A DNA stretch of 64,000 bases, from contig CAISGE010000043.1 in NCBI GenBank assembly GCA_903884815.1, forward strand, positions 701-64,700. Direction: 5' to 3'. The notes beneath the pieces are model-generated. The model was not told where the DNA came from, searched no databases, and saw nothing but the letters and a program-made list of their open reading frames with translations. Positions 7,839-58,655 of this stretch are shown here, piece after piece (within the stretch, counting starts at the first letter, position 1; each line of letters starts with the position of its first letter). The position numbers and the translations under genes were made by a program. This DNA comes from Candidatus Omnitrophota bacterium. GTDB taxonomy: Bacteria > Omnitrophota > Omnitrophia > Omnitrophales > Aquincolibacteriaceae.

Positions 7839-7877
7839 AAAGCGTAGTGAAAATTAAACATAAAAAAGGAGAAAACA

Positions 7878-8207: not shown

Positions 8208-8229
8208 CACCAACCACCGTAGAGAGCAA

Positions 8230-8330: not shown

Positions 8331-8770
8331 CATGCTCAGAAAGAAAGCGTTATGCCCCTAGATGGAACGAATAAGAAATGCGAACAGTGCCAAGAGAAGT
8401 GCAAGCAGTGGCGGCAGGTCACAATAATTCACTGCCCTTTTTTTCGGAGCAAACAAAGTCTGCCTACCCCTTCAGCTAAGGCTGGAACCACCAGGATGAC
8501 TTCTGGGACACCCTTTTCTGAAGATGAGCATAGCACCTAGGTAAGACGCACCGGACCACCCTTTAAGCAGGCCGGACGCAAATACCAGCGATTTAACAAA
8601 GCTAAGCGATATAGACGCTTTGGGAGCTTATATGCAACCCCAGCATAAACAACGAATTCGCCCCTGAATTTAAAGGGGTTACGCACTTAATCCCACCTTG
8701 GCGGGCGTCGTTAATAAGCTATAATAAGCTATAAAACGCCATAATCGACCAACAGAAAAGGGGAATTGCT

Positions 8771-10279: not shown

Positions 10280-10524
10280 AGAGTCGGACTTTCTCTTTGC
10301 CATATCCAAAATACTTGGACTTAGGCAGCAGGTGTAAAGTCTCTGCACTTGCCCTCCCGCCAAAGGCGGGATGCTAGCTCAGGATAGCCCCAACGCTTTT
10401 TGTTGGGATTTCCCTGACTTAGCCTGCTTATTCACCCTAAAGTTTCCCTTAGGGGCTGCTAACTTTGAGCGTGCTACGCTCACTCGTGCACAGCCGCATG
10501 CTCTACCAGCTGAGCTACAGGGGA
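10217..10524 (-). tRNA. tRNA-Asn(GUU) interrupted by a group I intron (exon 1 10490..10524, exon 2 10217..10257, CCA encoded)
   Basis: Exon sequence is UCCCCUGUAGCUCAGCUGGUAGAGCAUGCGGCUGU / UAACCGCAGUGUCCCUGGUUCGAUCCCAGGCGGGGGAGCCA. It is near-identical in architecture to E. coli tRNA-Asn. The anticodon loop CUGUUAA is restored after removing 232 nt. Confidence 0.7.
10258..10489 (-). ncRNA. Group I self-splicing intron (232 nt) in the anticodon loop of tRNA-Asn
   Basis: The 5' exon ends in U and the intron ends in G. P1 pairs GGCUGU with the IGS GCAGCC, giving a U.G wobble at the splice site. An R-like element (GUGCAGAGACU) and an S-like element (AAGAGAAAGUCCGAC) are present. No internal ORF. 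Confidence 0.6.
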
Positions 10525-10541
10525 ATAACATTTGAAAGAAC
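10517..10541. repeat. Direct repeat copy A (ACAGGGGAATAACATTTGAAAGAAC), covering the tRNA-Asn 5' acceptor strand plus 17 nt of leader
   Basis: Matches copy B at 10867-10891 in 24 of 25 positions. Confidence 0.7.
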
Positions 10542-10548
10542 GATGCTA

Positions 10549-10788
10549 CTAAAACCATTTTAAGAACTTCCTGCCTGCACCCGTTTTTAAATACTTCTCA
10601 CGAAGCAGCGCTTCTTTCCTAGAACGGTAATCCTCGGAACACAAGAGCGTGAAAGGACCGTTACTTCTTGTCCAAGCGTTCTTTCCTTCGTTGTGTTCTG
10701 CCAAACGAGTCTGAACTGATTTCCGGGTAAATCCGACATAGGACTTACCGTTCTTCAAACTCTTCAAAACATAAACATGATATATCAT
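10549..10788 (-). CDS. GIY-YIG nuclease family protein (79 aa, URI domain)
   Basis: Has YVYVL...GKSYVGFT, the GIY-YIG motif. It ends 24 nt upstream of the tRNA-Asn 5' end. Confidence 0.75.
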   Translation of the reverse strand: MIYHVYVLKSLKNGKSYVGFTRKSVQTRLAEHNEGKNAWTRSNGPFTLLCSEDYRSRKEALLREKYLKTGAGRKFLKWF

Positions 10789-35198: not shown

Positions 35199-38100
35199 TT
35201 ACGCGGCGGAGGCGAGGGAGCGGGCGGCTTCGGCGAATTTCTGGAGATTCTCCGCAAGCTTGAAGATGACGCTCAGGGACTGGACCCCGTGAAGCCTGTT
35301 TTGCTCTTCGGGCTTTTGTTCAAGCAGTGTGTTGATCGCGGCGATCAAGCCGTAAGACTTCTGGGTGAGCGTCATGCCTTTATCGCTGAAAACAAAGAGC
35401 ATCCGTTTCCCTTGATTGGATATGGACACAGCAGGCTCAAGCACCCGGAGCGCCTCCCCGTTATCTTCACGGAGATCATACACCAGCGCGTTTTCGGAAT
35501 TCTGTTTCGCGAAACCCGTGATCGCGGTTTCCTCCGAAACAACCTTCACATCCACACCGCCCTGGATACCGCGCGTCTCTTGGACCTTTCTAATGAGAGC
35601 GCCATGGAACTGTTCCAGATCCGCCGGCAAAGCGCCCGGCACCACGACCTGGAACTGGAGTTTGCTCTTGGCCATGACCTCAACGAGTCTCTTGAGCACC
35701 GAATCCTCCTTCTGAGGAATAGCACCAAAGATGACCGACACCTGCTGCCGTCCCGATTCCAGCTTCGTCGGATCCGTCAAAAGCTTCTCCACGCTGACCC
35801 TCTTTTCCGAACGCGTCATCGCGTGAGCGCTTGGCATGAGCTGATCCATCGTCTTCATGAACATCTCACGCCCGATTTCAAGCACGCGCGGCGCGGCGAA
35901 AACATCCTTCGCCGCCTCATGCGCCACCCAAATCTCTGCATCGGAAAGACGATGCTCAGACCTCCTCTCCTCCCTAGAGACCGGGTTCCCGGTGGATGGC
36001 GTGGAACGACCTTCGGCGGGAGGGTGGCCGAACACCTTCACGGTGAGCCAGAGCGCGGCTTGGCTTTGATATTCGAGGGCTTTTCCTTTCTGTGGATCCA
36101 AGGCGTCTTTGAAAATATTGCTGTTAAGAAAAATCCTCTCGTAGAAATCATCCGCATCCGTGAATGGCCGCATCGCTTCGATCGGTGCGATCTCTTCAGC
36201 CATCAGTTCAAAAGAAGCGTAGCCGCCTTTATCGAACCAGATTTCGTTTGTCATCCCTCTCAAGATATTCTGCCATTTGCTGACCGCCGCCGCCAAAGCT
36301 TGGCGCCTAGAAGACTCGTCCTGTTTCGTCGCGGCGCCATCAGGAGAAGCCGGCTTTTTCACCAATTCCCCGACAAATCGCCATCCCAGTATCGTTTCGC
36401 CACTATAGGCAACATCCGGCTCTGGGATCTTGAACCCCAACGATCGCGCTGTGGCCGCAAGCCGCGATACATATTCGGGGGTCAACTTCTCCGAGACGGC
36501 AACGCGTTCCCGCAACATTTCTTCGTGGTTTTTAAAAACCATGGCTTGCAATAAAAGCAACCCTTTCAATCGATCAAGCGGAATCTCTCCATCCCCCCCT
36601 CTGGCAATAGTTATTAATGCCTGAATAGCATTCAAAAGTTGCTTGAAGAATTCCAGCGTTACATTATCCTCCGTGCCGACAAACTTCCTCACGTCGGTGA
36701 TTGCGGACTGGATCTTTCCCTCCACGACCTCAAGCCGCTGAATGATCTGTGGGCGCGTGGGAACCGGGTCCCAATCCGCGATCCGGCCCAGGCCCGCTTC
36801 ATCGAGCGGCCCTAACATTTCCAACTCGTATTTTGTCGCCTGGGTGATCGCGCTACCGGGATGATGCATGAAAAAGCAGAAGCGCCCGCCTTCCTTTAAG
36901 ATGATCGCGGCCTGCCGCAGAACGGCCGGAACATCGCCGTATTCCACCCCGTATTGGCTCATCACCAGATCTGCTGCATCCTTCGGGACCCCCGGGGCCT
37001 CGGACGCTCGCTCCATAGCGGCCTGAACGAACGTCACACCCTTGGGCTTGCTTCCGGGCGTGTTCCGGAAAGGATCCACATAATCCACCGCATGGACCTG
37101 CGCACCGGGCGTAATCGCAAGAACACCGGCTTCGGCCTTTCCGCGGCCCGAAGCCAGACCCACGACCTTGGCGTCGGAAGGCAGCTTGCGGAACAAGGGC
37201 TCCCACACCGACTTCATCAAAGCTCGTTCAAGTTCCGGCCAAACAGGGCTATGCTCCCCGCTTGGCATGACGTCATAAAGAGATTGCCAATCACGCTGAG
37301 GGTCATAAGATTTTGCCGGGACCGCCTGAGGAGGCGCAGCTTTCCGGATCAGGCGGCCCCTGAAATACAGCCCCATCACACTGCCATTCATTTTAGCCCC
37401 GCTCACGTCCTTTTCCGTAATTTGGAACCCCAAATCCCGAGCCGTAAGGACGAGCTCCCGGAGATATTCCGGGTCCATTTTTTCGGCGACCCTGACCCTC
37501 TCCTGCAAAAATCGTTCCTGGTCATCAAGAGTCGCCGGCAAGGCACCAAGAAGAAGCTTAAGATCTTCGTCCGGCCTATAATCCGGTCTACGAACGCCCG
37601 CCAGTAAAGCGTCGATGGCCCGCAGGTACTGATCGAAAAATCCGGCGGCATCATTGTCATTCCCGTCCCTGGTCCTTCTAACCGACTCCACAATGGGTTC
37701 GATCCTCTTCCGGAGGGTCTCAAGACGTTCGAGGATCTCCTCCCGGTCAGGGACCGGGGCCCAATCGGCGATCCGGGTGACGCCTGTTTCGCGGGCCTTC
37801 TTAATCGCTTCCAGATCTTCCCGCGCGGAGTTGATGATCGCGCTGTAGGGATGATGCATGAAAAAGCAAAATAGTCCGCCTTCTTTCAAGATGTCCGCGG
37901 TCTCACGGAGTACCTTTATTACATCGCCGTATTCCACGCCAAATAGGCTCATGACCAGGTCCGCGTCGTGCGGTATCCCCGCCGCTTTGGACGCCTGCTC
38001 CATATCGGCTTGAATGAACGTGACACCCTGGGGCTTGCTTTCCGGATCATCCCGGAATGGATCTATGAAATCCACCGCGTAAACCTGGGCCCCCTGGACG

Positions 38101-41100
38101 ATCTTGCGGGCCCAGGTTTCGGGGACCGCGCGACCCGAGGCCAAACCGACCACCTTGGCGCCAGGCGGCAGCTCGCGGAACAAGGGTCCCCAAAGATTGA
38201 GCTTCAGGAACTGATCGTAATCATCCGGAACCACGCTGTTTTGCCCGGGAGCCATAGCGTCATAAACCCGTTGCCATTGTTTCTGCGGGGTCGTGGGGCT
38301 TTCAGCCAAACGAAGCTTCATGTTGCCTCGCGGCAGCCGCGTTTCCGCCCGACCCGGAGAATCCCCGGGAGCTGCCGGCACCGCGATTGGTTGTGCGGGA
38401 CTCGCTTCAGACCGTTCTGTTTTCAATACATTCTTAACCTCAGGAAAGATTCCTATTCTCTTTAAAAGCTCTTCCGCCAAGGGCAAATCTTCCCGAACGC
38501 CACGAGCCATCAACCAAAAACCACGACATACATTCCACACGGTCAAAAACAGTATTTTGATCTGGAAAGCGACCGACCAGTGCACCCTTTCATAGTGGTT
38601 GTACGCAATGCTTGGCCTCACATAGCTTGAAGCAAGAAAACCTTTTTGCGTGGAAGCGCCAAGAGGAAACTGCGCCTTGAAATAGCTAAAAAGTCCGGGC
38701 TTTCTGAAAGCCAGGATCGCATCCAGATGTTGCCGCGTTGTTTCGCCCTTGAGCAACGGCCTAGGGCCAAAAAAAGTCATTGAGCCTTCGATGATATTGA
38801 AAAGCTGGGGCAATTCATCCAAGCCCGATCTCCTCAGGATCGCGCCAAAGGGTATAGAAAAGCTACCGAACGGCAACGTTATTTCTTCCTTATTCTTCTC
38901 TAGGGTTCTTAATTTATAGACCATGAAGAGTTTTCCCCGGTAGCCGACCCTTTGTTGTTTCAAGATCACCGGACTTCCGGAAAACAGCCAGATCAAACCG
39001 GAGATGATCAGAATCACGGGAGAGAAAAGTATCGCTAAGGAAAGCCCTGCCAGTACATCGAAGATCCGTGATCCCGTGATCGGCCGGAGTCCTTCAGATT
39101 TTTTGGCCCATGATCCGGTGCCTGACGTTCCTCGATCCATCACGAACGTCGCAAGAATGTTGGGATCCTGTTGCCCGTCAGCCGGCTCCCGCATCTCCGC
39201 CCGCTCCGGAGAATCCCCGGGGGCTGCCCGTGTGGCTGTGGAAGCGATCAACTCACCGACAGGCACCTTGTTGGCAGTCACCCCGGGGGATGTTGCGGAT
39301 TGATTGATTTTTTGGATACGCGATTCGGCACGACTGCCTTTGTCCTTTTCCACGCGCCCGGCGGGACTAAACCCGGCGTTGGCGAGATACTGCTCGACGT
39401 TCTTCCAGTGGCTCATCGGGAAAAGGTGGATCCCCGTTACACCCGGCAGGAGCAAGGCCTTTTCAAACCGGCCGCGATTGTAAGAATCCCGGAACTTTCC
39501 GAACGCCTCGGGCTGCTTTACCTTGAAGGCCTCCGCTCTTTGCCAAGCATCGAGCGATTTTGCGGCCTCGGGATCGCGATAGGGATCCACTCCCATGAGA
39601 TGGCACCAGAAGCGGAGGTTCTTCGCACTCGATATCTCGGTCATGCCAATCTTGAATTGGAGGTTATCCATTAAGCCTGCGGCTTGAGCGGCATCCCAAG
39701 TTTTCCGGAACTCGCCGGGGAAAAGTGGCGGCTGGGTGTAGATCACGGTCGCACCCGCTTTTTTCTTCCTCGTCAGATCCTGGAGGGCATCTCCCGCATG
39801 GGGATTCCAGGTCGCCCAGATCTGAACATTTGCCGGAATCTCGCCGTTTTTCTTCATCTTGACCGCTTCTTTGATTGCCCAGTCGGTCTGGACCAGGAAT
39901 TGAGCGAGCGGTGTTTTCCTCAAGGGGTGCCCCCCGCCCATGAAGAGAAGCGCCTTCGTCTGGGGCCGGTTCCCAAGGTCCCGGATTATATCGAGTACAT
40001 CGAACGCCGACTGGGTTTGAAGCGCCACGGTCGCGACAAAATCCGTCCCAGGCAGTGGCATTTCCCGAATCTTCTCAAAACGCCCGACCTCGCTCCACAT
40101 GTCGGCGATTTTGACGGCGCGCGGGTCCTGAGAATTTTCAATCTTTTCGCCCCGACGACGCATGAATTCCTGGAACCCCCGGGGATACGGGAACGAGTCC
40201 TTGCGAAGCTTTTTTCCACGCATCATCAAAGCGGCATCTTCGACCCAAGCCGGAACTTCCGGAGCGCTCCGCGTGCTTGTCCCGTCAATCCACCCCGCTC
40301 CGTATAGCTGCATGAACGCGTCCCTTTCAGCAAGATACTTTTTCATGGATGCGGGATCATCCAACCGCGGCGCCGCAAGTTCCGCCGTCACGGTGAATTT
40401 CTTTTCGCTTACCCTCTCAGACAATCGCCCCAATCGGTTTCGCGTCTCGAATCGCAAAGAATCTCCGGGGACTGCCGGCGTGACTGCAGGAGCGATCAAC
40501 TCACCGACAGGCACCTTGTTGGCAGTCACCCCGGGGGATGTTGCGGATTGATTAATTTTTTGGATACGCGATTCGGCACGCGAAGCTTCAGCATCGGAGC
40601 GAGCGGCATCTGCTCCCGCGCCACTTGATACCGTGTCAGCCGAAGCATCGGTTTCTTTGGCTGCATTATTTGCCTCGATGAAAGCCTCGGCTTTATCCAG
40701 CGCGACATCCAATTGTCCTGGGGAAGGCTTGTGCCAAAGACGGGAATCCGGCCAATAATCCGCCAGGGGGCCGGCGACACTGCGATACCCGAGCGCCTTG
40801 AACACAAGCCTCTCCAAGACCTGAAACCAGAAAAATATTCTCTCGAAGAATCGAACCACGGGATTTCGTGTGGATTGCCGGCGGCCCTCCGGGAGATAGT
40901 CGATATCCGTCTTCACCCAGAGCTTCCACTTGCCATCCTCCGGATCATACGTCAATACCGTCATCGCGGCATTCTTGAGATTCCCTCTTTCAAAATGTTG
41001 GTAGACCGCGTCGAACTGGGAGGAGGGGATCTCCAGCATGTTCATGAGGTCCATCAAAAAATCAAGCCTGTGCACACCGATGAGAAATGTCTTTTCCGGA

Positions 41101-53100: not shown

Positions 53101-56100
53101 AGGAGCTCCGGATTGGACATAAGAAGAATGTCGATAAGGCCGGTGTTGACCCCCGCGATGGAACGAAGCGCCACCGAATGTTTTCCGGATCGCTCGCTGC
53201 TATCCCCCGCCGCCAATCGCGGAACAACTTTCAAAAGACGGATCCACGGAACCATCCATTTCTGAAGCTCCTCCCATTTTTGAGCGCGGAACAAATACTC
53301 CGCGCGATGGGCATAAGCCTCCAGGATCTCTTGAGGGTCCAGCTCAAGTTTTTTCGCGGCGTTTTCAAGATCTTCGGAACCGACATTGCGTCTCCCGAGT
53401 TGTCTGAAATAAAGGACGAAGAACCTGTCGAGAAGCGCTTGATGCACTTTCTCAAACCTTTCTTTCAGCGGATGCGACGCCGCCTTCGCCCCCAGCTCGA
53501 ATAACATTTCAGACAAATAACTGTAAACCTGAAGGAGCAACTGATCTTTCGCTTCGGGCGAGGCTTTTTTCTCCGCGGGACTGAACAACACTTCAAAAGC
53601 CGCGGGCCCCCCCTCGAGCAAGCCCTCAAGAAAGGAAAGTATATTTTCCATGAAAGCAACGGACGCTTTATTTTCAGGATTAAGGGCCATCACTCGCGAT
53701 AAGCTGGAGATACTCTCAATGAAGTAAAAAAGATAACTCGAGGCGGCCAACGTACTTTCCTTTCTCTTGGACAGTCTGTCGTGAAGGACCTTGTCTTGGG
53801 TCTCTTGTTCGACGGCCTCTTGAAGGAGTTCCAGGAGACTTTCCGGCTTATAGCCGCTCGCCACAAGACGCGCCGCAAAAGATTCATAAACAAGGGTCTT
53901 CAGGGATCTTTTGTGCTGCCGCATAAAAGCGGTAATCCAGTCGTTGATCGCCTGCGTGGATCGGGGCCGCACTTTCCCGGAAAAGAGCGCCCGGATGACC
54001 GCGTTCGAGTCCGTGACAAATGCCATGACGTTCCGGTGATCCGCCTCTTTTGCCTGTTCGATCAGGAATGCCATCATATCCGCGTTCAAGGCTGGGTCTT
54101 GGATCTGGACACAGAAATGAAGCGCCGCGAGCCAGATCTCGAGACCTTGTTCTTGAAGAAGAATGCTCAGTGCCGCTTTCAGAGAGGGTTCATGGTCAAC
54201 GTTAAACTCCCCCTCCATGCCTAAGTCGGCCCAGGCCACGAGAACCTTTTCGATCACCTCAGGATTGTTTCTAACGGCGTAGATCAGCATTTCGGCAAGG
54301 ACTTTGGGATCCTCCGGCCACCGGTAGGGGTCGACCAGGATCGAAACGATCGCGGCGTCGGAGCGGGACACATAATGACCGCTCTCAGGGGATGCCGGAT
54401 CCTCAAACGGCGTAAAAGGCATGCCGGGGTGGAAGAATTGGCTAAAACTACCGTAACGGGAGGAGCCCTTGACCCCGGTTTTTCCATTTTTCACGAGGTC
54501 ACTGAAAATACCGGTCAAAACTTCCGTGGCCTCCGCTTCCTTCCCCTGCTCGAGAAGCCACTCCGCGTAATAACTTTCCGCGATTCGCGTCGCGAACCAG
54601 ACTCCGGAGATCCCCCGGATGTCTTGGTAGCGCCGGCGCATTTCCATTGCCGTCTCGGCCGAAAAATCATCTTCGATCAGCCTTTCATAATAAAAAACCA
54701 TCATCTCTGCCGTCTTTTGCCAAGCCGCCTCAGCCCGGGCTTCGGCAGCCAGGGCTTCGCCCTCATCACCCTGTCGCTGGCCGGCCATGACTCCCATAAA
54801 GTGGCTAAAGCGTCCACTATCCAGAAAACCCTTTGCCTTAGCCAGATATTCAAGCGCAGCGGGCATATTTCCGGCTCTTCTAAGACGGTCCGCCTTCACC
54901 AAATAAGCCGGGAAGAGGATTGCCACGTCATCGTTCACTCCTCCACCGCTCCCCTCGCTCAGCTGAATCGCGCGATCGAGACTCGCTTCGGTGTGGTGTA
55001 CAGACAGCCAAAGAGCATTCACAAATTGCGACTGGGTCCGGCTGCCCCTCACAACATTGATCAAGGTTTCTTCGGGACGCTCAGGGTCAAGATCATGCGG
55101 TTTGTCTTTATAATAAGCGAGAATCTTCCTCCGCATAGACTCCCCCGTTTCCCGGGCCTCCGCTTGAACCTTCTGGAGGGTTTCTTCCATGTCGGCAAGG
55201 GTCTCGAGCGAGAACCTGAGAAGTTCTTCCGTGGCAGGGATTCGGCGGCTGTCAAGACTGAAATCCATGCTCAGTTTTCCGAGAAGCTCCGTGAGTAAGC
55301 CTATGAGACCGGCATCCAAAGTTCCGTCATGACCGTCTAAGATCAAGGAAAGTGCCGCGATGCTAAAGAAAAGGGATCTCTCTCTTTCCCCGATTTTCCG
55401 GTAATTGCCGGCAAGAGTAGCAAATCCATGCTCCGTAAGTTCCGGGGTATAACCGTAAAGACGGAACGCTTTCATGCGTTGTTCGATCCCCTCGCGGTAT
55501 TGCCCCCGCATCTCCTCCCACCCCGGCAAAAGAAACAGGTTCAGCATCTGCACTCTCGCGACGCCGATATCTGCGGGCAGTGTAATATCCTCAATGCTCC
55601 GAATCCCTTTTCTCCGAAAGTGGACTTCGCAAGCCTCCTCTAATTCAGTCAAAATAGCCCCCATCACCGGGGTGGGCCATTCGTTGACTGAATTGCCATG
55701 CCCGACCCGGATCCTGTCAAAAACAGATCTCGCGAACGGCTCTTGGAAATACTTCTCGGATTTGCTGATAAAATAAGCCCGGAATTCTTCTTCCGTGAGT
55801 TCCCCGTCCAAGTCGATCCGGCCCTCAGAACGCGATGTGGTCGTCCCCAAAGAAACAAGTGATTGTCCCGCGAATTTATTGAGCAGTTTTCCGGCAGACC
55901 GGGCTCCGGGTTCCGCCCCGGATTCTTTTCGCGCCTCGGCGCGGACCGGATGAGTAACGCGAAACAGGGCAAGCGAGTCCCCGAGCGTGCTATGTCCTTC
56001 GTGGATTTCTTTTCCGTATTTTTCCTGGAAATCCTCCCACCACGCCTCGCTCTCAGCAGTCTCAAAAATAACGTCAAAGTTGTGCTCCCGGAGAGCGCGG

Positions 56101-58655
56101 GCGATCATGGTGGGCGACAGAAAGTCCGTCACCATGTCTCCCGGGCCGGAAATAGCGTGCCAAACACTTACAATCTTAGTATTTTTCTTGTAGTTTTGGA
56201 GCATTTCCCCGGAATGACTCCCCTCTCCGAAAAGCAAAATGCCTATGCTCTGAAAGAACTTCGCGAGGGCATAAGCGCTGTCGATCGTAACGGGCGCGTC
56301 GTTCAGAGGATGGGTTAGAAGGATCTTGTCTCCATCCAGCCGGATCGCTATACGGCCCGCCGAGGGATGAAGTTTCTTGAAGAGGCCCGGACAGTAAAGA
56401 GCCTTGTAATCAAGGGGATGCAGGCTGTGACTTTTTCTTTGATACTCCCGCCGGTAACTTTTTTTGTTGGCCTCCATATAAAAAACGCTCCGGCGGGGAC
56501 GAACTATGATCTCCTCATCCGTAACCGTAACGACCTCCAGCCATTCTGGCCTTTCGGGATCTAAAATAATCCCGTCCCCGGGCTCTAGATCCTGGCCTTC
56601 ATACAGAAAAGCCCGTGGAACTTTGCCGTCGATCTTGATCCCCCGCTTTTTTTCCGAGGGGCGAGACTTAGCGTTTTCTTCAGCCTCTTCTTGGACAGCA
56701 GGATTCGCCGTCCGATTCTCCGCGCGGGCAAAGCTAAGTTGAGTACCGTTCCACGCAAGACCGAGGGCCGCCAACCTGGGAGCGATCAACTCACCGACAG
56801 GCACCTTGTTCCGGCCGCCGACCGTTCGAAGGGCTTCCTGGAAAATTCCAAGAAGATGGCCGGCGATGACGGGCCCAAGGTCTTTGCGTAGATCCGGGAG
56901 CAAAGCGAAGGAAGGAGCACGAACGCTTGAATCTTGATCGCGCGACGAATCGGACCCCGGTTTTGGCGTTGCGCGCTGCGCTCTGCGCGCTGCGCCCGGA
57001 GGTGGGGTGATACCCGTCATCACGCTGAGGTAATTCGCATTCGATTCCAGATTCGTGATACGCGGCGCGACGCGGACATAAGAAATTCCGTTTTTCTTAA
57101 AGAGTTCCGCGAGACCTTCCGAATGGAATCCGCCAGTCACGAGAACCGCATTCGCCTGCTTCAGCGATTTCATTTGCGCGAACATGTTCCTGAAGAGTGC
57201 CTGTTCCCGCTTTTCAGCAGTCTCATAGAAGCTCAACGCGCAACGCGCAACGGTCAACGTTGGACTCGCGAGCTTTTCACGTTGTGCGTTGTGCGTTGTG
57301 CGTTGCTCTAGCAATTCCTGATACTCTTCCCGCGAAAGTTCCAGGCTGAAAAGTTTCTTCAGCGACCGGTACTCTTTATACCTTTCGATCAGGGCTTTCT
57401 CCACATCGGAAGTCGCGAGCTTCGCGAGAATCTGATCGTTTAATTTTTCGACCTCCTTGAAAAGGTCCGGCGCTTGCAACTCGTTTGAAAGGATCGCGAT
57501 CCCGATACGACGGGTCAGATTCGGATAATCTTCAAAACGGAAACCGAGCGGCGCGGCCTTGGAATAGAAATCCTCCATGAGAGAGCGAATGTCTCTACCG
57601 CGAGGTAAGGCGGAAGGCGTACGGCGTGCGGCGCCCGACGCTTCGTCTTGTAGAATATCTGACAGATGATAGCTCTCCGGATCTAACCGATGGGCTAAAA
57701 TCCAGGATATAAGCTTTTGTTTTTCCTCCCCATACTCCGTACCCCGTACTTCGTACGCCGTTTTTTCAAGTGCTTTTAATTTAAAAAATCGAACTAATTG
57801 CGGCCAATCGTATTGTTCCCGGGCATTCGTAAGGTCCAGCGCGAGATGCTCCTCCGCGACTTTCGGAAGTTGTTCCAGCCCTGCGAAAGGCTCGGCCGCA
57901 ACCTCACTGTGAAAAGCCCAATCGCGGAAGAATTTTTTGAGTCCGAGATTGAAGGCCACGGAGGCTTCATCGGTGATCTTCTGGCGGATCTCTTTGAGGG
58001 CGGCATCGGTTTGCGGCTTTGCCGCATAAACAGCGCGAAACTGCTCGAGGTTTTCTTTGTAGAGCTTGAGGTCTTCGACGCCGTAAACGCGTCCGGCGGA
58101 AGGCGAACGGCGAGCGAGGCTTTCTTTTGCGCCGTACTCCGTACTCCTTACTCCGTACGAATCAGCAAGATCCAGCTCCACACCGCCGATCAGTCCCCGG
58201 CGATTCATTTCTTCAAGAAGTTGGCGATTCAGTTTCGCGTCATCAAAAAAATGGAGGTTTGCAGGATCAAGGGGTTTCCAGGCACCCTCGAGATAAACCG
58301 TATTGAGACCGTAGGCCTTTCGCAGGTGGGCGAGAATACGTTCAATGTTTTCCTGCCCCTCGGGCTGCCCGTGAGCTTCTTCCACGTGGACAATCACGGG
58401 TACGGCGGAAGGCGTACGGTGTACCGCGTCACTGCTTTGAGGTGATACCTCATGATAGACTTCTCGGATGATTCCAAGTTCAGAAGGGATTGAGATCTTC
58501 TCCTCTAAGGAAGTTAGAGAAATCTCCGGACTCCGTACGCCGTACGCCGTACTCAGAGTAGGAGTAGCCTGGACAGTCGTCGTCGTAAAGCAGATCAGCG
58601 TGCAAACAGCAAACGCACGCAAAAAGTGAGAGAACTCTCCCTTAGTTTGACGCAT
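35199..58655 (-). CDS. Giant multidomain protein (7,818 aa). It has a signal peptide, a UPF1-like SF1 helicase, a GlnD/GlnE-like nucleotidyltransferase with HD and ACT domains, internal TM helices, a MetF-like domain, a PglC-like phosphoglycosyl transferase and tandem SAM-MTase-like units.
   Basis: One uninterrupted ORF of 23,457 nt in a 58%-GC background. Multiple unambiguous enzyme motifs are all in the same frame (see the sub-features below). There is a plausible promoter and an N-terminal Sec signal. Confidence 0.75.
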   Translation of the reverse strand: MRQTKGEFSHFLRAFAVCTLICFTTTTVQATPTLSTAYGVRSPEISLTSLEEKISIPSELGIIREVYHEVSPQSSDAVHRTPSAVPVIVHVEEAHGQPEGQENIERILAHLRKAYGLNTVYLEGAWKPLDPANLHFFDDAKLNRQLLEEMNRRGLIGGVELDLADSYGVRSTEYGAKESLARRSPSAGRVYGVEDLKLYKENLEQFRAVYAAKPQTDAALKEIRQKITDEASVAFNLGLKKFFRDWAFHSEVAAEPFAGLEQLPKVAEEHLALDLTNAREQYDWPQLVRFFKLKALEKTAYEVRGTEYGEEKQKLISWILAHRLDPESYHLSDILQDEASGAARRTPSALPRGRDIRSLMEDFYSKAAPLGFRFEDYPNLTRRIGIAILSNELQAPDLFKEVEKLNDQILAKLATSDVEKALIERYKEYRSLKKLFSLELSREEYQELLEQRTTHNAQREKLASPTLTVARCALSFYETAEKREQALFRNMFAQMKSLKQANAVLVTGGFHSEGLAELFKKNGISYVRVAPRITNLESNANYLSVMTGITPPPGAARRAQRATPKPGSDSSRDQDSSVRAPSFALLPDLRKDLGPVIAGHLLGIFQEALRTVGGRNKVPVGELIAPRLAALGLAWNGTQLSFARAENRTANPAVQEEAEENAKSRPSEKKRGIKIDGKVPRAFLYEGQDLEPGDGIILDPERPEWLEVVTVTDEEIIVRPRRSVFYMEANKKSYRREYQRKSHSLHPLDYKALYCPGLFKKLHPSAGRIAIRLDGDKILLTHPLNDAPVTIDSAYALAKFFQSIGILLFGEGSHSGEMLQNYKKNTKIVSVWHAISGPGDMVTDFLSPTMIARALREHNFDVIFETAESEAWWEDFQEKYGKEIHEGHSTLGDSLALFRVTHPVRAEARKESGAEPGARSAGKLLNKFAGQSLVSLGTTTSRSEGRIDLDGELTEEEFRAYFISKSEKYFQEPFARSVFDRIRVGHGNSVNEWPTPVMGAILTELEEACEVHFRRKGIRSIEDITLPADIGVARVQMLNLFLLPGWEEMRGQYREGIEQRMKAFRLYGYTPELTEHGFATLAGNYRKIGERERSLFFSIAALSLILDGHDGTLDAGLIGLLTELLGKLSMDFSLDSRRIPATEELLRFSLETLADMEETLQKVQAEARETGESMRRKILAYYKDKPHDLDPERPEETLINVVRGSRTQSQFVNALWLSVHHTEASLDRAIQLSEGSGGGVNDDVAILFPAYLVKADRLRRAGNMPAALEYLAKAKGFLDSGRFSHFMGVMAGQRQGDEGEALAAEARAEAAWQKTAEMMVFYYERLIEDDFSAETAMEMRRRYQDIRGISGVWFATRIAESYYAEWLLEQGKEAEATEVLTGIFSDLVKNGKTGVKGSSRYGSFSQFFHPGMPFTPFEDPASPESGHYVSRSDAAIVSILVDPYRWPEDPKVLAEMLIYAVRNNPEVIEKVLVAWADLGMEGEFNVDHEPSLKAALSILLQEQGLEIWLAALHFCVQIQDPALNADMMAFLIEQAKEADHRNVMAFVTDSNAVIRALFSGKVRPRSTQAINDWITAFMRQHKRSLKTLVYESFAARLVASGYKPESLLELLQEAVEQETQDKVLHDRLSKRKESTLAASSYLFYFIESISSLSRVMALNPENKASVAFMENILSFLEGLLEGGPAAFEVLFSPAEKKASPEAKDQLLLQVYSYLSEMLFELGAKAASHPLKERFEKVHQALLDRFFVLYFRQLGRRNVGSEDLENAAKKLELDPQEILEAYAHRAEYLFRAQKWEELQKWMVPWIRLLKVVPRLAAGDSSERSGKHSVALRSIAGVNTGLIDILLMSNPELLGVFFPESGEQAPVAPSPESLNLALLARHNPERERFYAAMKPIALSDPSTPDIDSFKAQMINSLFLFANEIRSQEPELAEKALGVAIAYFRETAAASRNPVTEAEFQAGSRASHFSTDKPFARNQQAYFRLCLALAREDNDAVKMALTELHRADEEAGDGATFPAMDTALVEAVFTVQEGGSRKAALDILEKLFIFQENAAAANGTRAPPVYDRIEILLNRFLNLPPAYKETAISLLAELIAEGRAETRIPVDSVDNRFFVLNALMSRVASPEWNMALFRVMDSKWADGSPAERSAWVDVFTEMAPSSVPAIGAVLFCDRILRDDVSKQWQAPVSAFRKELETQLTPQGYYELAEQQFKDAKYAECGQSLETARRNGASGDLALSIQELAAKRKRVAERKRQLQKDLAAQDKDLDSLERSITAILKDNSEDREALDLKEKVQGAREIEAQALEKFAEEDYSGALEKLQEFPESLTGNKTRKRRKALETWIGALSTVRGSLERSELEKAEGQLENSLREMQKNWSQGSPLAEHDTVQHLRDEIQDLRSTLQGLEHAISGNGTYSAVFENAKRLAVFPNRAVRAAQLVLRLAEEAFHSGVAGKATDFKKAYYYAVFVAELEREFPVIADEGRAARNLASHAMAQHWLPELTDQGFLISAMVKARQEREEENIRESNGRPIEIKFSKIELHPEKRMFTVYDLKLGRAGATGGETVWDDLGKPEKFGWPEDTFRIRNPSKKEPMQPFFRLVKRGVEHGRSFMQFELPETHKGFDYLNALLTGEVSKGGILTRTSARALERQEDYLADYVLNLTTSTRLAKGNGLLTTQATTGNALVDYALGLQIGVAAQEKETDFSAFEKMEAEYAESGKALDPAQRAAVKETLRPAGSPGNYGSASPIVLVQGPPGTGKTKVIEWITKLASEGGQRVVVLSQSNAGADNVAKKLLEDGLPFVRVGSNEDAIDHEILPSWEARGPELDLMLKQRKSGGGSLLIGTINGFSGDKEIRTRPELLNTDVLIIDEASLATLPEFFFAFAQLQGVKKIIVVGDPDQLPAFGISDEDRRFITKYLNQAKKLGRNIFAGNELKTRFGQRTLLEILDKEKRNAHKKSYLEKALDLFYPRELALAGFVSFAPYFFLNIQRRSGSWIVRLINYFYRKSGRPKLMAGREITGMVIDDNTHGRFGFHDENANSEDHDGGKKNPGEADRVITHIHWLMNKKHLGAEDIGVISPYADQVELIRDRLLATSKAHDYLVRLAAGQELSNDEWIVFEELFGSEALEARVDYRADSWLMANHPGYRGLRGQQKGGVRREKVRGIKDSLRRIRRGEGDRRTQAAEILRFLGLEGSFPAAYEIEVSLLDVTTVNKSQGSEYKAVIVSWVRSNEDDNVGFLADPVEGRNRINVAISRAKDYLIMVWDRDTFERCKDPDVHEWVMDYNDVMREFSGSGPRDRGRHRRRSETRNTTLPDDQLDWISREGALFKAQREKILKSNTPWEEKSVALADLADHYVAKVAEEFKRYIHRNYPDTPPMLFVATGSYGRREVAPHSDYDGLVVVRTHADVESLKDHFTPGGFVYESSRVLGGAWDLFALEEFENPVTVTDLGLTKEFNAASSASFAARMQATHRTTAPEIQREAMTQLLFAREVSSPGLPFAELETALKNHLDQPVKRARVLRQILDAWDEHRQEEGYFSGLAEREPDLKWGAGGLKDFDVASWVVRLFFRDENDAIDQTSGHNIAFLTREEFEEARKAAAHIREIRWKLQALPTAEEGGSSDRLGLEQQPALAEWMYRETGAGEDARVVLFLEDLHRAQRTLYLYASTILDRALQKTTPLQYDFLPDGDDEKFPFPGVEKAKRFGETITENGPVLIPEDRKEAVLTLHPGQSIRPDDILEIFKFAAEHDCALTGELLDGIKNARAAFLEHLGRDEAFRAQARAAFAAILRAKGPIGDLLLQAHLLGLLEEIVPGYRELNHRVVQDFKYEHTLDVQSINYARILDGLRGKAEVTGPMAGASRLSIPEDWLAPVRAAMLVDALIDQKIPGIDPSKVFALIGLDPAEAGKARWLIEKRTALFSLMQNSGLYYPDEFLEFQRDNLSDAAGRPDFHRWQVLVALTLTQIETFQKGRTEIYLNRLKPFLEITEEEFMDPERMKTYYREHVPLDQLPGFAEGLEDDEVRVDWEATGIPDTWVLRVASRSRLDRPGRLFRIATVLASGKQGQFSVLSLLPQHFAKGAITVNAMIVRRNFLDQALEEDPKFSENLTERFRSALLMEDAGKVRSGYRNKPFFRSPALMPLPPTKVLVRHYGHSNFVYLETPDGIGALADIAHILLMHGLLLGPRSTIDTVGYSRKVGLQIQDTIHVLRPDGSQPSSREMKDLAEDLEFAFSHETITDEVLNEVLVRVDSRHRLRANRSNMRVVDEDSFSKAARAWSKNRPKDKDLGRKQPDPGMEAAYLITQQLPLLQKAFGITIRGDEVVLRPEEIIPNEAGQIEREWLNMGDQRLVEAARQFLHEKGLNEEVLGKGWKEALQTLSEVDERGRPAQGEFRPEFESALLKARLFIDLLYEIGSGILETPIAETAREIIDPDPGKTFDPERVMDLFIRSAETKKPVSAFNQIAIMAAAGTVASDSPEARELWKGFMRFLRVQTDISDAVYAMHQTGLLSLMSPEFAELDNIYDDNAYWHYYRVSNHALYAFDNFEELTFGDLPPNGAPSQVLGAVGFHESAKDPEWLARMRLGVLFHDVGKQLILTKFQVSHQIRGAITLLPQILERAGLLTQFAADEFRTFAFLQFIIWYHQHGNSIIQNFRELIESALFDWQARLAMSAEEGLDPRSLIRAFAAITLADRLGTHPDRNAELMGRAPEAWVNPIILERTREFFLELQAFFESGFNALSREKILRRRDEKNRAYTEELLDQLKRYYPSEAALAEARKQLGKFAALKGYDYLRRFRPDMIQEHLVLFNKLEEMPVDRQGIPLVSVLHSEEGYSRADQHFLHIAVGVPFDEPGILARLTGVFAGFRLSIHDADVTGFDGKTFDHFMVYQVGQEGEEMGVSDDFVAALTKALREIVVEKDYMPKLRALFAAQGRPYEFDTFEDSGGPASLKFLPSEKQGNVRLLVHMPNGLGRMHVVTRVLDELKINIDDVPVETRSFGAEDIFEMKNGDGTPLSEHFQAGIRSAFEELLSLKKIREADILRAIAAAEATRSEMRYKIDYKDLSPDQKKEAKALGVALMPKDGNGKVIGRRSALDGVIRTLRAYEKVLHGGQPLEKGRSKAIVSVREALAGQGLSGKTAEAERRLIEDAIIVVQWVVDQREFQHRSEVEKMISQMASDEESPDMLDDGPPFMELSKEKLRKILASLEILATLERVDASVINKALDRKHGNRPPAEMPSLPDDKTFFLMGIELIQARLLAEQLIERMRREAIEFTLQHCRELVWNGQPIPSDYHVREAITEAGILFEDNEALFRVLGKTIDFVRERGEKRSEVRQAIQPGTIPGNPRAEFREFSGAIRSELRKEDLAGAVIAERPDGLIIADLSKITDEAVLAKVFASLEAIEAKDHGRDGFWMTEKILRETLSYGEPVWAMFDADMKLDGILFFTPWGHEKEGTRETYKKVVLQALVTRPDGPDQDWVFFRDTFFAAMQEKGADSVFFWTRQTPTWKKYFQGRTDKGVILDAQLTPSRFPRDSRLQDSYWVRLEPLDRSESRDGQAQSAAISEADFNPYASSRPEGTLPLVSGVTRLKLALSFATAFVNLPIVLQLHQDSAWLMMNPVFWIQDWWFQIGFTVAGDILLALGAIYMPQIREVLPHKPLQPTRLKPVQVGVARRSENRDKPKQLTSEEIKRLNPEYMFAENFFDQYEDMRQWLAEKPGRKLVTLVSHGRSGSNEFEYHQDHSMFSPLTIFGRLQVAALVAFFKKMKITFEAYLSSDLERDYQTVSPLARRAGKKPEVLESLREVKLDWFGGYPYRWVASTRAKMFRIFRRDPAKYEIEGYSGSQAEKDKALLFLKEIPTRPEKTFLIGVHRLDFLMDLMNMLEIPSSQFDAVYQHFERGNLKNAAMTVLTYDPEDGKWKLWVKTDIDYLPEGRRQSTRNPVVRFFERIFFWFQVLERLVFKALGYRSVAGPLADYWPDSRLWHKPSPGQLDVALDKAEAFIEANNAAKETDASADTVSSGAGADAARSDAEASRAESRIQKINQSATSPGVTANKVPVGELIAPAVTPAVPGDSLRFETRNRLGRLSERVSEKKFTVTAELAAPRLDDPASMKKYLAERDAFMQLYGAGWIDGTSTRSAPEVPAWVEDAALMMRGKKLRKDSFPYPRGFQEFMRRRGEKIENSQDPRAVKIADMWSEVGRFEKIREMPLPGTDFVATVALQTQSAFDVLDIIRDLGNRPQTKALLFMGGGHPLRKTPLAQFLVQTDWAIKEAVKMKKNGEIPANVQIWATWNPHAGDALQDLTRKKKAGATVIYTQPPLFPGEFRKTWDAAQAAGLMDNLQFKIGMTEISSAKNLRFWCHLMGVDPYRDPEAAKSLDAWQRAEAFKVKQPEAFGKFRDSYNRGRFEKALLLPGVTGIHLFPMSHWKNVEQYLANAGFSPAGRVEKDKGSRAESRIQKINQSATSPGVTANKVPVGELIASTATRAAPGDSPERAEMREPADGQQDPNILATFVMDRGTSGTGSWAKKSEGLRPITGSRIFDVLAGLSLAILFSPVILIISGLIWLFSGSPVILKQQRVGYRGKLFMVYKLRTLEKNKEEITLPFGSFSIPFGAILRRSGLDELPQLFNIIEGSMTFFGPRPLLKGETTRQHLDAILAFRKPGLFSYFKAQFPLGASTQKGFLASSYVRPSIAYNHYERVHWSVAFQIKILFLTVWNVCRGFWLMARGVREDLPLAEELLKRIGIFPEVKNVLKTERSEASPAQPIAVPAAPGDSPGRAETRLPRGNMKLRLAESPTTPQKQWQRVYDAMAPGQNSVVPDDYDQFLKLNLWGPLFRELPPGAKVVGLASGRAVPETWARKIVQGAQVYAVDFIDPFRDDPESKPQGVTFIQADMEQASKAAGIPHDADLVMSLFGVEYGDVIKVLRETADILKEGGLFCFFMHHPYSAIINSAREDLEAIKKARETGVTRIADWAPVPDREEILERLETLRKRIEPIVESVRRTRDGNDNDAAGFFDQYLRAIDALLAGVRRPDYRPDEDLKLLLGALPATLDDQERFLQERVRVAEKMDPEYLRELVLTARDLGFQITEKDVSGAKMNGSVMGLYFRGRLIRKAAPPQAVPAKSYDPQRDWQSLYDVMPSGEHSPVWPELERALMKSVWEPLFRKLPSDAKVVGLASGRGKAEAGVLAITPGAQVHAVDYVDPFRNTPGSKPKGVTFVQAAMERASEAPGVPKDAADLVMSQYGVEYGDVPAVLRQAAIILKEGGRFCFFMHHPGSAITQATKYELEMLGPLDEAGLGRIADWDPVPTRPQIIQRLEVVEGKIQSAITDVRKFVGTEDNVTLEFFKQLLNAIQALITIARGGDGEIPLDRLKGLLLLQAMVFKNHEEMLRERVAVSEKLTPEYVSRLAATARSLGFKIPEPDVAYSGETILGWRFVGELVKKPASPDGAATKQDESSRRQALAAAVSKWQNILRGMTNEIWFDKGGYASFELMAEEIAPIEAMRPFTDADDFYERIFLNSNIFKDALDPQKGKALEYQSQAALWLTVKVFGHPPAEGRSTPSTGNPVSREERRSEHRLSDAEIWVAHEAAKDVFAAPRVLEIGREMFMKTMDQLMPSAHAMTRSEKRVSVEKLLTDPTKLESGRQQVSVIFGAIPQKEDSVLKRLVEVMAKSKLQFQVVVPGALPADLEQFHGALIRKVQETRGIQGGVDVKVVSEETAITGFAKQNSENALVYDLREDNGEALRVLEPAVSISNQGKRMLFVFSDKGMTLTQKSYGLIAAINTLLEQKPEEQNRLHGVQSLSVIFKLAENLQKFAEAARSLASAA
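36400..37345 (-). other. Giant protein: SAM-methyltransferase-like unit 2 (tandem duplicate of unit 1)
   Basis: DAKVVGLASGRGKAE, ADLVMSQYGVEYGD, ILKEGGRFCFFMHHP. DNA also similar: 36861-36890 versus 37849-37878. Confidence 0.5.
37350..38300 (-). other. Giant protein: SAM-methyltransferase-like unit 1
   Basis: GAKVVGLASGRAVPE (motif I-like), ADLVMSLFGVEYGD, ILKEGGLFCFFMHHP. Confidence 0.5.
38600..39080 (-). other. Giant protein: PglC-like monotopic phosphoglycosyl transferase (bacterial sugar transferase) domain
   Basis: RIFDVLAGLSLAILFSPVILIISGL re-entrant helix, YKLRTL, LRRSGLDELPQLFNIIEGSMTFFGPRP (catalytic DE dyad), FRKPGL. Near-colinear with C. jejuni PglC. Confidence 0.75.
39209..39330. 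repeat. Intragenic repeat encoding linker RAESRIQKINQSATSPGVTANKVPVGELIA (copy 1)
   Basis: About 90 nt essentially identical to 40459-40580. Core GCGATCAACTCACCGACAGGCACCTTGTTGGCAGTCACCCCGGGGGATGTTGCGGATTGATT. Confidence 0.7.
39340..40440 (-). other. Giant protein: MetF/methylenetetrahydrofolate-reductase-like TIM-barrel domain (tentative)
   Basis: Order-preserving resemblance to MetF: FTVTAELAAPR / LYGAG / VIYTQPPLF / GIHLFPMSH versus VSFEFFPPR / VTYGA / AITQFFFD / DFHFYTLNR. Weak, so tentative. Confidence 0.35.
40459..40580. repeat. Intragenic linker repeat (copy 2). A partial third copy lies at 56775-56805.
   Basis: Read directly. Confidence 0.7.
41700..41960 (-). other. Giant protein: internal cluster of 2-3 transmembrane helices
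   Basis: LKLALSFATAFVNLPIVLQL ... VFWIQDWWFQIGFTVAGDILLALGAIYM. Confidence 0.5.
43690..44190 (-). other. Giant protein: tandem ACT domains
   Basis: HIAVGVPFDEPGILARLTGVFAGFRLSIHDADV and VRLLVHMPNGLGRMHVVTRVLDELKINIDDV. Confidence 0.5.
44500..45100 (-). other. Giant protein: HD phosphohydrolase domain
   Basis: MRLGVLFHDVGKQ (H...HD...K metal-binding signature). Confidence 0.6.
46000..46260 (-). other. Giant protein: ACT-like domain
   Basis: VLVRHYGHSNFVYLETPDGIGALADIAHILLMHGLLLG. Confidence 0.4.
47950..48600 (-). other. Giant protein: GlnD/GlnE-like nucleotidyltransferase domain
   Basis: LFVATGSYGRREVAPHSDYDGLVV (G-S-x9-D-x-D NTase motif) and downstream DLKWGAGGLKDFD. Confidence 0.7.
48880..50450 (-). 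other. Giant protein: UPF1-like superfamily 1 helicase domain
   Basis: Walker A LVQGPPGTGKT, Walker B LIIDEAS, VVGDPDQLP, ISPYADQV, VNKSQGSEYKAVIV, NVAISRAK. Confidence 0.8.
51480..52000 (-). other. Giant protein: long coiled-coil segment
   Basis: Heptad-like charged repeats RKRVAERKRQLQKDLAAQDKDLDSLERS ... LEKAEGQLENSLREMQ. Confidence 0.45.
57244..57316. repeat. Heptad-periodic palindromic element, CAACGCG/GTTGTGCG-type, in-frame inside the giant gene
   Basis: CAACGCG CAACGCG CAACGG ... GTTGTGC GTTGTGC GTTGTGC GTTGC. The arms pair with G.U wobbles only on the plus-strand transcript. Confidence 0.55.
57603..57765. repeat. GTACGG-type palindromic element (arms 57603-57645 and 57730-57765), in-frame inside the giant gene
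   Basis: AAGGCGGAAGGCGTACGGCGTGCGG ... CATACTCCGTACCCCGTACTTCGTACGCCG. Confidence 0.55.
58088..58158. repeat. GTACGG-type palindromic element, in-frame inside the giant gene (encodes SYGVRSTEYGAK / ARRSPSAGR)
   Basis: Read directly. Confidence 0.55.
58397..58562. repeat. GTACGG-type palindromic element (arms 58397-58427 and 58530-58562), in-frame inside the giant gene
   Basis: GGGTACGGCGGAAGGCGTACGGTGTACCGCG ... CTCCGTACGCCGTACGCCGTACTCAGAGTAGG. Confidence 0.55.
58566..58655 (-). other. Giant protein: N-terminal Sec signal peptide (MRQTKGEFSHFLRAFAVCTLICFTTTTVQA)
   Basis: Positive n-region, hydrophobic core, VQA cleavage-like site. Confidence 0.55.

Follow-up and report, generated by a model that had tools for sequence, protein, structure and literature searches.

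A giant multi-enzyme gene of an Omnitrophota bacterium with a recurrent linker pentapeptide: a candidate polyprotein

The window analyzed here is a 64,000-nucleotide (nt) stretch of contig CAISGE010000043.1 (positions 701 to 64,700, forward strand) from a Candidatus Omnitrophota bacterium (GenBank assembly GCA_903884815.1). On its minus strand lies a giant open reading frame (ORF) encoding a protein of 7,818 amino acids (aa), P0001, in which unrelated enzyme modules are strung between a conserved N-terminal head and a short C-terminal tail, and in which a pentapeptide, R-[S/A]-E-x-R, recurs in the linkers. We suggest, with a probability of roughly 55%, that P0001 is a polyprotein processed at the R-[S/A]-E-x-R sites. 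The gene and its conserved ends are located as follows.

35199..58655, minus strand: whole giant ORF, 7,818 aa plus stop (ORF listing; identical protein on at least 10 public contigs)
58566..58655, minus strand: signal-peptide-like segment (aa 1-30: MRQTKGEFSHFLRAFAVCTLICFTTTTVQA), read from the sequence
57006..58562, minus strand: conserved head (aa 32-550), with a predicted TIKI/TraB/erythromycin-esterase-like fold and putative catalytic residues E93-x-H95, E123, R483, and H511
35202..35249, minus strand: conserved C-terminal tail, NLQKFAEAARSLASAA-COOH

The ORF starts with ATG and runs through 23,454 nt with no internal stop (ORF listing of the window); since about 4% of random codons are stops, an open frame of 7,818 codons is not explicable by chance. 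An earlier description made from the letters and their ORFs alone (here, the sequence-only reading) had proposed a single frame in roughly 58% GC DNA. The frame stands; the GC figure was too high, because GC content across the region is 53-58%, with a mean of ~55%. The exact P0001 sequence recurs in at least 10 contigs (50-200 kb each) drawn from separate assemblies (ENA ERZ1426631 and ERZ27245625, NCBI, JGI), and near-identical variants carry 1-4 substitutions with length and frame unchanged. Because identical or near-identical proteins occur in independent assemblies, a chimera, a collapsed repeat, or a hidden frameshift is strongly disfavored, which also answers the worry about a chimeric assembly that the sequence-only reading had raised. 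The notion that the ORF is an artefact, either a chimera or a set of operon genes that seem fused via sequencing errors, can draw on the metagenomic origin of the sequence and on single in-frame stops in some low-coverage relatives; set against the identical ORF from several sources, the uninterrupted frame, and a head-modules-tail layout common to hundreds of relatives, its probability is close to negligible. Housekeeping genes of ordinary Gram-negative type flank the giant gene (ahpC, sodB, folA, and thyA upstream; ygiQ, an HI0933-like flavoprotein gene, and lpxL downstream). The host belongs to Omnitrophota, since every named protein among the closest homologues of the neighboring YgiQ (71-75% identity) comes from Candidatus Omnitrophota. 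We conclude that the ORF is a true single gene of this bacterium, in a very large head-modules-tail family, and we are nearly certain that gene, family, motif, and the fold class of the head are all real.

R-[S/A]-E-x-R occurs 17 times in P0001, where 0.72 copies are expected and no more than 5 were seen in 500 shuffles, and it ranked first among enriched gapped patterns when these were searched for with no motif specified beforehand. None of the 34 other ORFs of the window contains it. The codons used for the motif vary among the copies. We refer to these sites as junction motifs; a native linker from the giant protein reads GDSPGRAETRLPRG. The copies, with the linker DNA around some of them, are as follows.

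56777..56810, minus strand: third copy of the 34-nt linker core (NKVPVGELIAP, aa ~616-626), just past the head
56712..56726, minus strand: junction motif 1, RAENR (aa 644)
55929..55943, minus strand: junction motif 2, RAEAR (aa 905)
55818..55832, minus strand: junction motif 3, RSEGR (aa 942)
52356..52370, minus strand: junction motif 4, RAETR (aa 2096)
48735..48749, minus strand: junction motif 5, RSETR (aa 3303), between the helicase and the nucleotidyltransferase (NTase)
43509..43523, minus strand: junction motif 6, RSEMR (aa 5045), directly behind the ACT pair
42591..42689, minus strand: cluster of three motifs, RSEVR, RAEFR, and RSELR (aa 5323, 5340, and 5351)
42018..42032, minus strand: junction motif 10, RSESR (aa 5542)
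41646..41660, minus strand: junction motif 11, RSENR (aa 5666)
40458..40580, minus strand: linker cassette copy A (RAESR-IQKINQSATSPGVTANKVPVGELIA...), which holds junction motif 12 (aa 6026)
39189..39332, minus strand: linker cassette copy B, with motifs 13 (RAESR, aa 6442) and 14 (RAEMR, aa 6485)
38337..38351, minus strand: junction motif 15, RAETR (aa 6769)
35949..35963, minus strand: junction motif 16, RSEHR (aa 7565)
35799..35813, minus strand: junction motif 17, RSEKR (aa 7615)

The sites sit between recognized domains: behind the helicase (aa 3303), behind the ACT pair (aa 5045), around the phosphatase (aa 5666 and 6026), and on either side of an orphan module (aa 6026 and 6442) and of the Bac_transf module (aa 6485 and 6769). 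The resulting pieces span 11-1,742 aa: the larger ones match ordinary proteins in size, and short spacers of 11-50 aa separate them; about 16 segments are protein sized, and many of these are recognizable and mutually unrelated enzymes. Cassettes A and B, which bracket the orphan module, are 93% identical in DNA over 123 nt, and a 30-nt linker core recurs exactly three times in the gene. This duplication of linker DNA around a module suggests that modules have been inserted or exchanged by recombination at the linkers. One stretch of linker cassette (window 39204-39290, aa 6447-6473) scored 21.9 bits against the Pfam family Flagellin_IN (cut-off, 22.7), which is probably a compositional coincidence.

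Modules were called with Pfam and NCBIfam profile scans at curated cut-offs. At least eight distinct enzyme or regulatory families share the one frame, none dominating by copy number.

48789..52127, minus strand: helicase module (aa 2177-3289), a helical/coiled region plus a UPF1-like superfamily 1 (SF1) helicase core (aa 2719-3263)
47085..48677, minus strand: GlnD-like NTase plus GlnD_UR_UTase region (aa 3327-3857; Pfam/NCBIfam)
44556..45218, minus strand: HD-like region (aa 4480-4700; H4533, H4584-D4585, H4639, and D4688)
43587..44501, minus strand: ACT domain pair (aa 4719-5023), 30-35 bits
41736..41924, minus strand: weakly hydrophobic cluster, possible transmembrane (TM) helices (aa 5578-5640; Kyte-Doolittle 1.63)
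40914..41513, minus strand: histidine phosphatase His_Phos_1 (aa 5715-5914), 58 bits, cut-off 21.7
39333..40448, minus strand: orphan module (aa 6070-6441), the MetF-like segment of the sequence-only reading
38526..39068, minus strand: Bac_transf, a PglC-like phosphoglycosyl transferase (aa 6530-6710), 115.6 bits, PF02397 cut-off 27
36366..38288, minus strand: two tandem paralogous S-adenosylmethionine (SAM) methyltransferase units (aa ~6790-7100 and ~7120-7430), with no motif between them

The SF1 helicase (AAA_11, 78 bits; AAA_12, 89.4 bits; both above gathering scores) has a Walker A sequence, GPPGTGKT, and a motif II, DEAS; the module recurs in five family members (P0003, P0004, P0005, P0007, and P0098). 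Its core also matches the PADLOC model MkoA (E = 8e-53) and, weakly, Hhe/PLuB, as might be expected if the giant were an anti-phage defense protein built around a Mokosh/Hhe-like helicase. We find this highly improbable, as the match is limited to the generic UPF1-like core and falls far under curated cut-offs, the head and NTase module have no PADLOC defense match, and many family members lack the helicase.

The GlnD-like module matches GlnD_UR_UTase at aa 3527-3657 (42-44 bits) and TIGR01693 (E = 1.5e-32) over both the NTase/UTase part and the C-terminal ACT pair, and it keeps the order of GlnD itself: NTase, GlnD_UR_UTase, HD-like, ACT, ACT. It nevertheless differs from GlnD in scoring 112.8 bits against a TIGR01693 equivalog cut-off of 519.4, in its length (1,742 aa versus ~890, with ~860 aa inserted), and in that a junction motif splits the corresponding region of a relative, P0002. 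By these sequence criteria, the module is GlnD-like but not a true GlnD. Its HD-like part drew no match from the Pfam HD model; a profile of this region built from five family members has an invariant H..HD..H..D pattern and matches the equivalent region of A-adding enzymes (E = 8e-11), so residue pattern and profile together moderately support the HD assignment, which had been made earlier as an outright HD domain.

Downstream, the Bac_transf module has its Asp-Glu dyad in GLDELPQL and a strongly hydrophobic helix at aa 6540-6558 (Kyte-Doolittle 2.56); the proposed PglC-like transferase stands as far as domain, dyad, and helix go. The methyltransferase units contain four DNA repeat families, 75-84% identical and spaced 987-990 nt apart, which marks the pair as a recent tandem duplication at the sequence level and bears out their description as duplicated units. 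Thus, the helicase, NTase, Bac_transf, and methyltransferases that were to be checked by profile scans all exceed curated cut-offs, and the ACT repeats were also correctly seen. The internal TM cluster survives in weakened form, as the possible helices at aa 5578-5640. The MetF-like barrel is not established: the orphan module has no Pfam match (including PF02219) and no match among PDB sequences, and it has no homologue among 5.8 billion proteins or among 272 family sequences. A weak, colinear BLASTP match to genuine MTHFR spans 156 residues (E = 0.001), and a single-sequence AlphaFold model (pLDDT 39.5) was unusable. The sequence-only reading had also treated large regions as lacking any recognizable family, and it overlooked the His_Phos_1 phosphatase as well as the conserved head, the junction motif, and the tail. 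Hydropathy shows that ~5,500 aa after the signal peptide have no TM segment and contain ATP-, UTP-, and SAM-dependent enzymes.

Enrichment of the junction motif extends across the family. We counted 870 sites in 151 head-bearing proteins (478,625 aa; 28.8 expected), 108 of which have at least three. At 80 independent genome loci, head-bearing ORFs contain 323 sites (14.3 expected); control ORFs at the same loci have 43, of which 35 lie in neighboring tandem giants and the remainder equals expectation. The logo, R-S(>A)-E-[M/V/L/A/T/I]-R, is enriched 59-fold, and substitution of Lys for Arg or Asp for Glu is essentially excluded; position 2 accepts Ser, Ala, or Thr. Upstream flanks are rich in Pro, Ser, and Thr and downstream flanks are acidic. 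We rejected the idea that the motif is a phospho-Ser site because Ala or Thr stands in for Ser.

Sites avoid folded domains. None falls inside a head (the first site has a median position of aa 680 and a minimum of 486), and in six scanned proteins 0 of 77 sites lie within Pfam or head intervals (P = 3.5e-8). The median spacing is 306 aa, while 11% of spacings are <60 aa, representing double sites around short spacers. Single enzymes are often bracketed: in the giant itself, Bac_transf (aa 6530-6710) lies between sites at 6485 and 6769 and His_Phos (aa 5715-5914) between 5666 and 6026; in relatives, Methyltransf_28 (aa 2463-2712) lies between 2389 and 2755 and DeoC (aa 1415-1627) between 1391 and 1693. 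Small residues follow the second Arg in 48% of sites versus 26% of background, and bulky N-degron residues in only 6% versus 19%; Pro is depleted at this position though enriched upstream. This flank bias fits a scissile bond after Arg5, albeit only suggestively.

Selection appears to act on the peptide, because Glu and Arg5 codons, flanks, and DNA contexts are near background. The 75-nt DNA contexts are unrelated for 398 of 400 sites, and flanking and third-codon positions carry ≤0.3 bit. Among 401 sites (the window plus loci L002-L085), Arg1 is encoded by CGY (CGC/CGT) in 80% versus 41% of background and Ser2 by TCN in 96% versus 68%; Glu3 and most Arg5 codons are at background. An origin of the motif as a DNA repeat was rejected on account of the differing codons and unrelated contexts. 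One could still propose that CGY-TCN-GAR-NNN-CGN is primarily a nucleic-acid signal, such as a recombination site for module shuffling or an RNA-processing site, with the peptide secondary. The synonymous bias at Arg1 and Ser2 agrees with this, as do the duplicated linker DNA and the thrice-repeated core, which point to recombination at linkers. Yet Glu codons and the six Arg5 codons stay near background, almost all contexts are unrelated, what is conserved at position 4 is a class of amino acids (M, V, L, A, and T) and not a nucleotide, and the motif is always in the coding frame and confined to linkers; we regard a nucleic-acid signal as very unlikely.

In some lineages, other peptides take the place of R-S-E-x-R at similar spacing: [GA][AS]-SLG-[DE] in 5-10 copies (L038, P0137, and P0088) and D-RTEMR in 7 copies (L044 and P0115). 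The three heads of the ASLG class differ from the rest at a few conserved positions, e.g., D243 to H.

The second conserved feature of the family is the head. An all-against-all BLAST showed that a region of ~500 aa at the N terminus is common to every motif-bearing giant, and in 116 of 134 family members it is preceded by K/R and a 10-aa hydrophobic core, in line with the signal peptide proposed earlier for P0001. The head has no Pfam match at E values up to 1 (including TraB_PrgY_gumN, Erythro_esteras, and Cofac_haem_bdg) and no NCBIfam match; its profile found only noise among PDB sequences, and a Foldseek search against PDB gave nothing significant. A predicted α/β fold with a parallel β-sheet core nevertheless matches, with moderate confidence, that of erythromycin esterase, ChaN, TraB, and RRSP, i.e., the TIKI superfamily. 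This superfamily (Tiki1/2, RRSP, EreA-C, BcR135/136, ChaN, TraB, PrgY, and GumN) shares a 2His/2Glu catalytic motif and a conserved basic residue, and includes sequence-specific endopeptidases (Tiki and RRSP) as well as esterases and a heme-binding protein. In 131 heads, [E/D]93-x-H95, E123 (+28), R483, and H511 (+28) are 100% conserved. They have the same order and spacing as the residues of RRSP (E3900-x-H3902, E3930, R4001, and H4030), except that the Arg-to-His distance is 28 rather than 29, and the same order and His-to-Glu spacing (+28) as Bcr135 (H85/E113); as in the superfamily, the predicted catalytic residues lie at the ends of parallel strands of an α/β core. The head differs in being missed by superfamily sequence models, in a helical insert of ~250 aa between its half-motifs, and in its fusion to the N terminus of giants. 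Given the mixed activities within this superfamily, a peptidase role for the head is plausible. That the head is itself the processing enzyme is a more tentative proposal, to which we give somewhat less than even odds.

Heads are numerous. A head profile matched 9,169 clusters at E ≤ 1e-3 and 5,067 at E ≤ 1e-30 among 1.84 billion representative proteins, and in the best 150 matches the head is always N-terminal, and the proteins range from 536 to 7,984 aa. Scanning GTDB species genomes for a pattern beginning [IV]QDAH yielded 158 head relatives, almost all from metagenome-assembled genomes (MAGs) of Omnitrophota and often several per genome; this pattern misses the window's own genome, whose head reads VEEAH. 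The head of P0001 is atypical in having EEAH instead of QDAH, in lacking the conserved extension past the GGFH region, and in carrying short-repeat insertions, YGVRSPE / YGVRSTEYG / YEVRGTEYG and HRTPSAVP / RRSPSAGR / RRTPSALPR (DNA repeat family D6; window 57604-58428, aa ~76-350).

At the other end of the chain, 112 of 151 family proteins terminate in [A/S/M]-Ala-COOH, 65 of them in Ala-Ala, an ending expected in ~0.8% of proteins and found in 0 of 138 controls. An amphipathic tail of ~20 aa precedes these residues; P0001 ends ...ARSLASAA. The 39 proteins without this ending are mostly short and probably truncated. For 20 of 110 members, no more than 12 residues separate the final pentapeptide from the C terminus (...ARAEVRKAA). 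The Ala-Ala tail is reminiscent of an ssrA-type degron or a ligand of PDZ-domain proteases. One protein, P0003, has the tail without head or sites.

Searched with its C-terminal 5,000 aa, P0001 has as its only relatives six other giants of 3.7-7.5 thousand aa with different enzyme sets; three of the six, and a second giant beside one of them, contain the same motif in 6-12 copies each. Giants of the family often stand in tandem on the same strand (L004 21524-30530, L021, L048, L059, and others), and single genomes hold several paralogues, with six loci in isolate SO_2016_GW1_117 and four in SRP342105_co1_308. Three head-bearing ORFs from low-coverage MAGs have a single in-frame stop after which the frame continues (L006, TAG at 5523-5525; L027, TAG at 2273-2275; L078, TAA at 1021-1023); these stops could be sequencing errors, marks of pseudogenes, or sites of read-through.

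We favor the polyprotein reading because a protease-like head, unrelated modules of protein size, a motif confined to linkers, double sites, a signal peptide ahead of TM-less enzymes, and lineage-specific switching of the site occur together. In such a scheme, translation would yield one continuous chain, and an endopeptidase specific for the pentapeptides would then cleave it there, probably directly behind the second Arg. The best candidate for this enzyme is the protein's own head, working in cis or in trans. Among the separate products would be the helicase, the GlnD-like module, the phosphatase, the sugar-phosphate transferase, and the methyltransferase pair; the linkers seem to be the places where modules are gained or swapped. 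Cleavage would also account for the presence, in a single frame, of a signal peptide and of nucleotide- and SAM-dependent enzymes of cytoplasmic type. The sequence-only reading had remarked that the enzymes form no obvious single pathway; this was a fair observation, and it is the look to be expected of a string of independently released products.

Several points weigh against processing. The case for cleavage is built from sequence features. A TIKI-like fold is no proof of a peptidase, since the superfamily also includes esterases and non-enzymes (EreA-C and ChaN). About 8-10% of long members have an intact head with neither R-S-E-x-R nor an obvious substitute; these include P0007 and loci labeled Clostridia or Elusimicrobia, and the P0007 head, checked for degeneration that might match its missing sites, showed none, its catalytic residues being intact. 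Since the three ASLG-class heads are probably members of a single clade, phylogeny confounds the apparent covariation of head and motif (e.g., D243 to H). The codon bias at Arg1 and Ser2 would allow some weak contribution at the nucleic-acid level. Moreover, if the signal peptide exports the head, then the head and the cytoplasmic modules would be on opposite sides of the membrane. MARTX-like delivery into prey would resolve this separation, though speculatively and by analogy.

The motif-less members with intact heads, and the absence of a motif between the methyltransferases, which indicates that multi-domain products exist, would also suit a chain that is never cut. In that case, the giant would act as a scaffold keeping its enzymes together at the membrane, with the pentapeptide serving for docking, regulation, or modification, for example, or as a structural cap. 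Such a role agrees with the published view of long Omnitrophota proteins as membrane-anchored multi-enzyme or scaffold proteins, and the support for cutting comes from sequence rather than from products. Nevertheless, a structural linker has no need of exact Arg, Glu, and Arg amid unconserved P/S/T-rich sequence; the exchange of Ser for Ala or Thr makes phosphorylation unlikely; double sites 15-50 aa apart look like excised spacers; and an intact chain sits poorly with a signal peptide that precedes ~5,500 TM-less aa of enzymes dependent on ATP, UTP, and SAM. On balance, we think an uncleaved scaffold rather unlikely.

A further alternative keeps the cleavage mechanism of the polyprotein reading and changes its place of action: a predatory or parasitic Omnitrophota cell would secrete the giant and deliver it into prey, where it would be processed and its enzymes would act on prey ATP, SAM, and membranes, as in MARTX toxins. 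MARTX effector repertoires vary between strains, and a built-in protease frees the modules by cutting the linkers between them. The giant likewise has conserved ends around a highly variable string of unrelated enzyme modules that seem to be exchanged at linkers. A signal-peptide-like N terminus is widespread in the family, the head's structural relative RRSP is one of the MARTX effectors, and Omnitrophota are inferred to be host dependent or predatory, a lifestyle to which giant ORFs have been linked. However, the giant has no glycine-rich RTX repeat arms (no such Pfam match anywhere), no InsP6-activated CPD or other peptidase family by Pfam or NCBIfam, and no adjoining type I secretion genes in the window. 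Its candidate protease is N-terminal and TIKI-like, its site is a strict five residues, and members have up to >20 modules versus ≤5. Modules such as the GlnD-like sensor, the undecaprenyl-phosphate sugar transferase, and the methyltransferases appear suited to housekeeping or regulation within the producing cell itself, and genomes hold several paralogues. Export into prey therefore seems unlikely to us.

Together with MARTX toxins, viral polyproteins are the closest functional analogues of the proposed system. As in those of picorna-, flavi-, and nidovirus type, unrelated enzymes share one chain with a candidate protease and a short conserved junction motif, and site and candidate protease may change together between lineages. 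Unlike them, the giant is a bacterial chromosomal gene with housekeeping neighbors, many paralogues per genome, and a different fold in its candidate protease. Tentatively, and at somewhat less than even odds, we extend the comparison to the phylum: Omnitrophota may use virus-like expression at scale, with thousands of chromosomal genes, an N-terminal TIKI-family endopeptidase cutting at R-S-E-x-R, and an Ala-Ala tail serving as a handling signal.

Giant ORFs characterize Omnitrophota along with other ultra-small bacteria that depend on hosts, and multi-enzyme giants of the phylum have been published (West-Roberts et al. 2023, bioRxiv 10.1101/2023.11.21.568195; Seymour et al. 2023, PMC10066038; 2026 preprint 10.64898/2026.06.07.730766, which defined the multi-enzyme class of very long Omnitrophota proteins). 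P0001 resembles these in its phylum, its very long ORF tiled by unrelated Pfam enzymes, its N-terminal signal peptide, its few TM segments, and its large unannotated stretches; at 7.8 thousand aa, it lies at the small end of their range. The combination of domains had been called new, which holds for the exact domain set but not for the class. West-Roberts et al. suspected cleavage and stated explicitly that the cleavage points were unknown, which blocked further analysis; C39 and S8 peptidase domains have been proposed as candidate processors in published giants. Neither 10.1101/2023.11.21.568195 nor 10.64898/2026.06.07.730766 mentions a TIKI-like head, an R-S-E-x-R motif, or an Ala-Ala tail, and a search of literature outside subscription journals found nothing linking Omnitrophota with polyproteins, TIKI/TraB domains, or the junction motif. 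Head, junction motif, and tail thus appear undescribed.

The head-motif-tail architecture makes it directly testable whether giant gene products act as one chain or are cut up. In hundreds to thousands of proteins, the pentapeptide marks specific positions as candidate cut sites, which can be used to split giants for structure prediction, to search proteomes for neo-termini, and to design cleavage assays around a candidate enzyme, the head, whose putative catalytic residues can be mutated; the head constitutes a domain family of >9,000 clusters that neither Pfam nor NCBIfam contains. If the phylum-wide reading is true, bacteria would have their first example of such a cellular polyprotein system, and it would explain how organisms with small genomes tolerate giant genes; if confirmed, cleavage at the sites would also provide a new, highly sequence-specific protease/site pair of possible biotechnological use.

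Elsewhere in the window, a low-GC island (43% versus 55%) at 128-10279 encodes the type I restriction-modification proteins HsdS, HsdM, and HsdR together with a large serine recombinase. Because the island ends beside an intron-containing tRNA gene, it probably represents an integrated mobile element. This tRNA gene (window 10217-10560, minus strand) is split by a group I intron, matched by Rfam RF00028 at 10265-10485 with 51.8 bits (gathering score, 50). ARAGORN finds a tRNA of 73-75 nt at 10217-10560 only after removal of the intron in silico, and its anticodon depends on the exact splice point.

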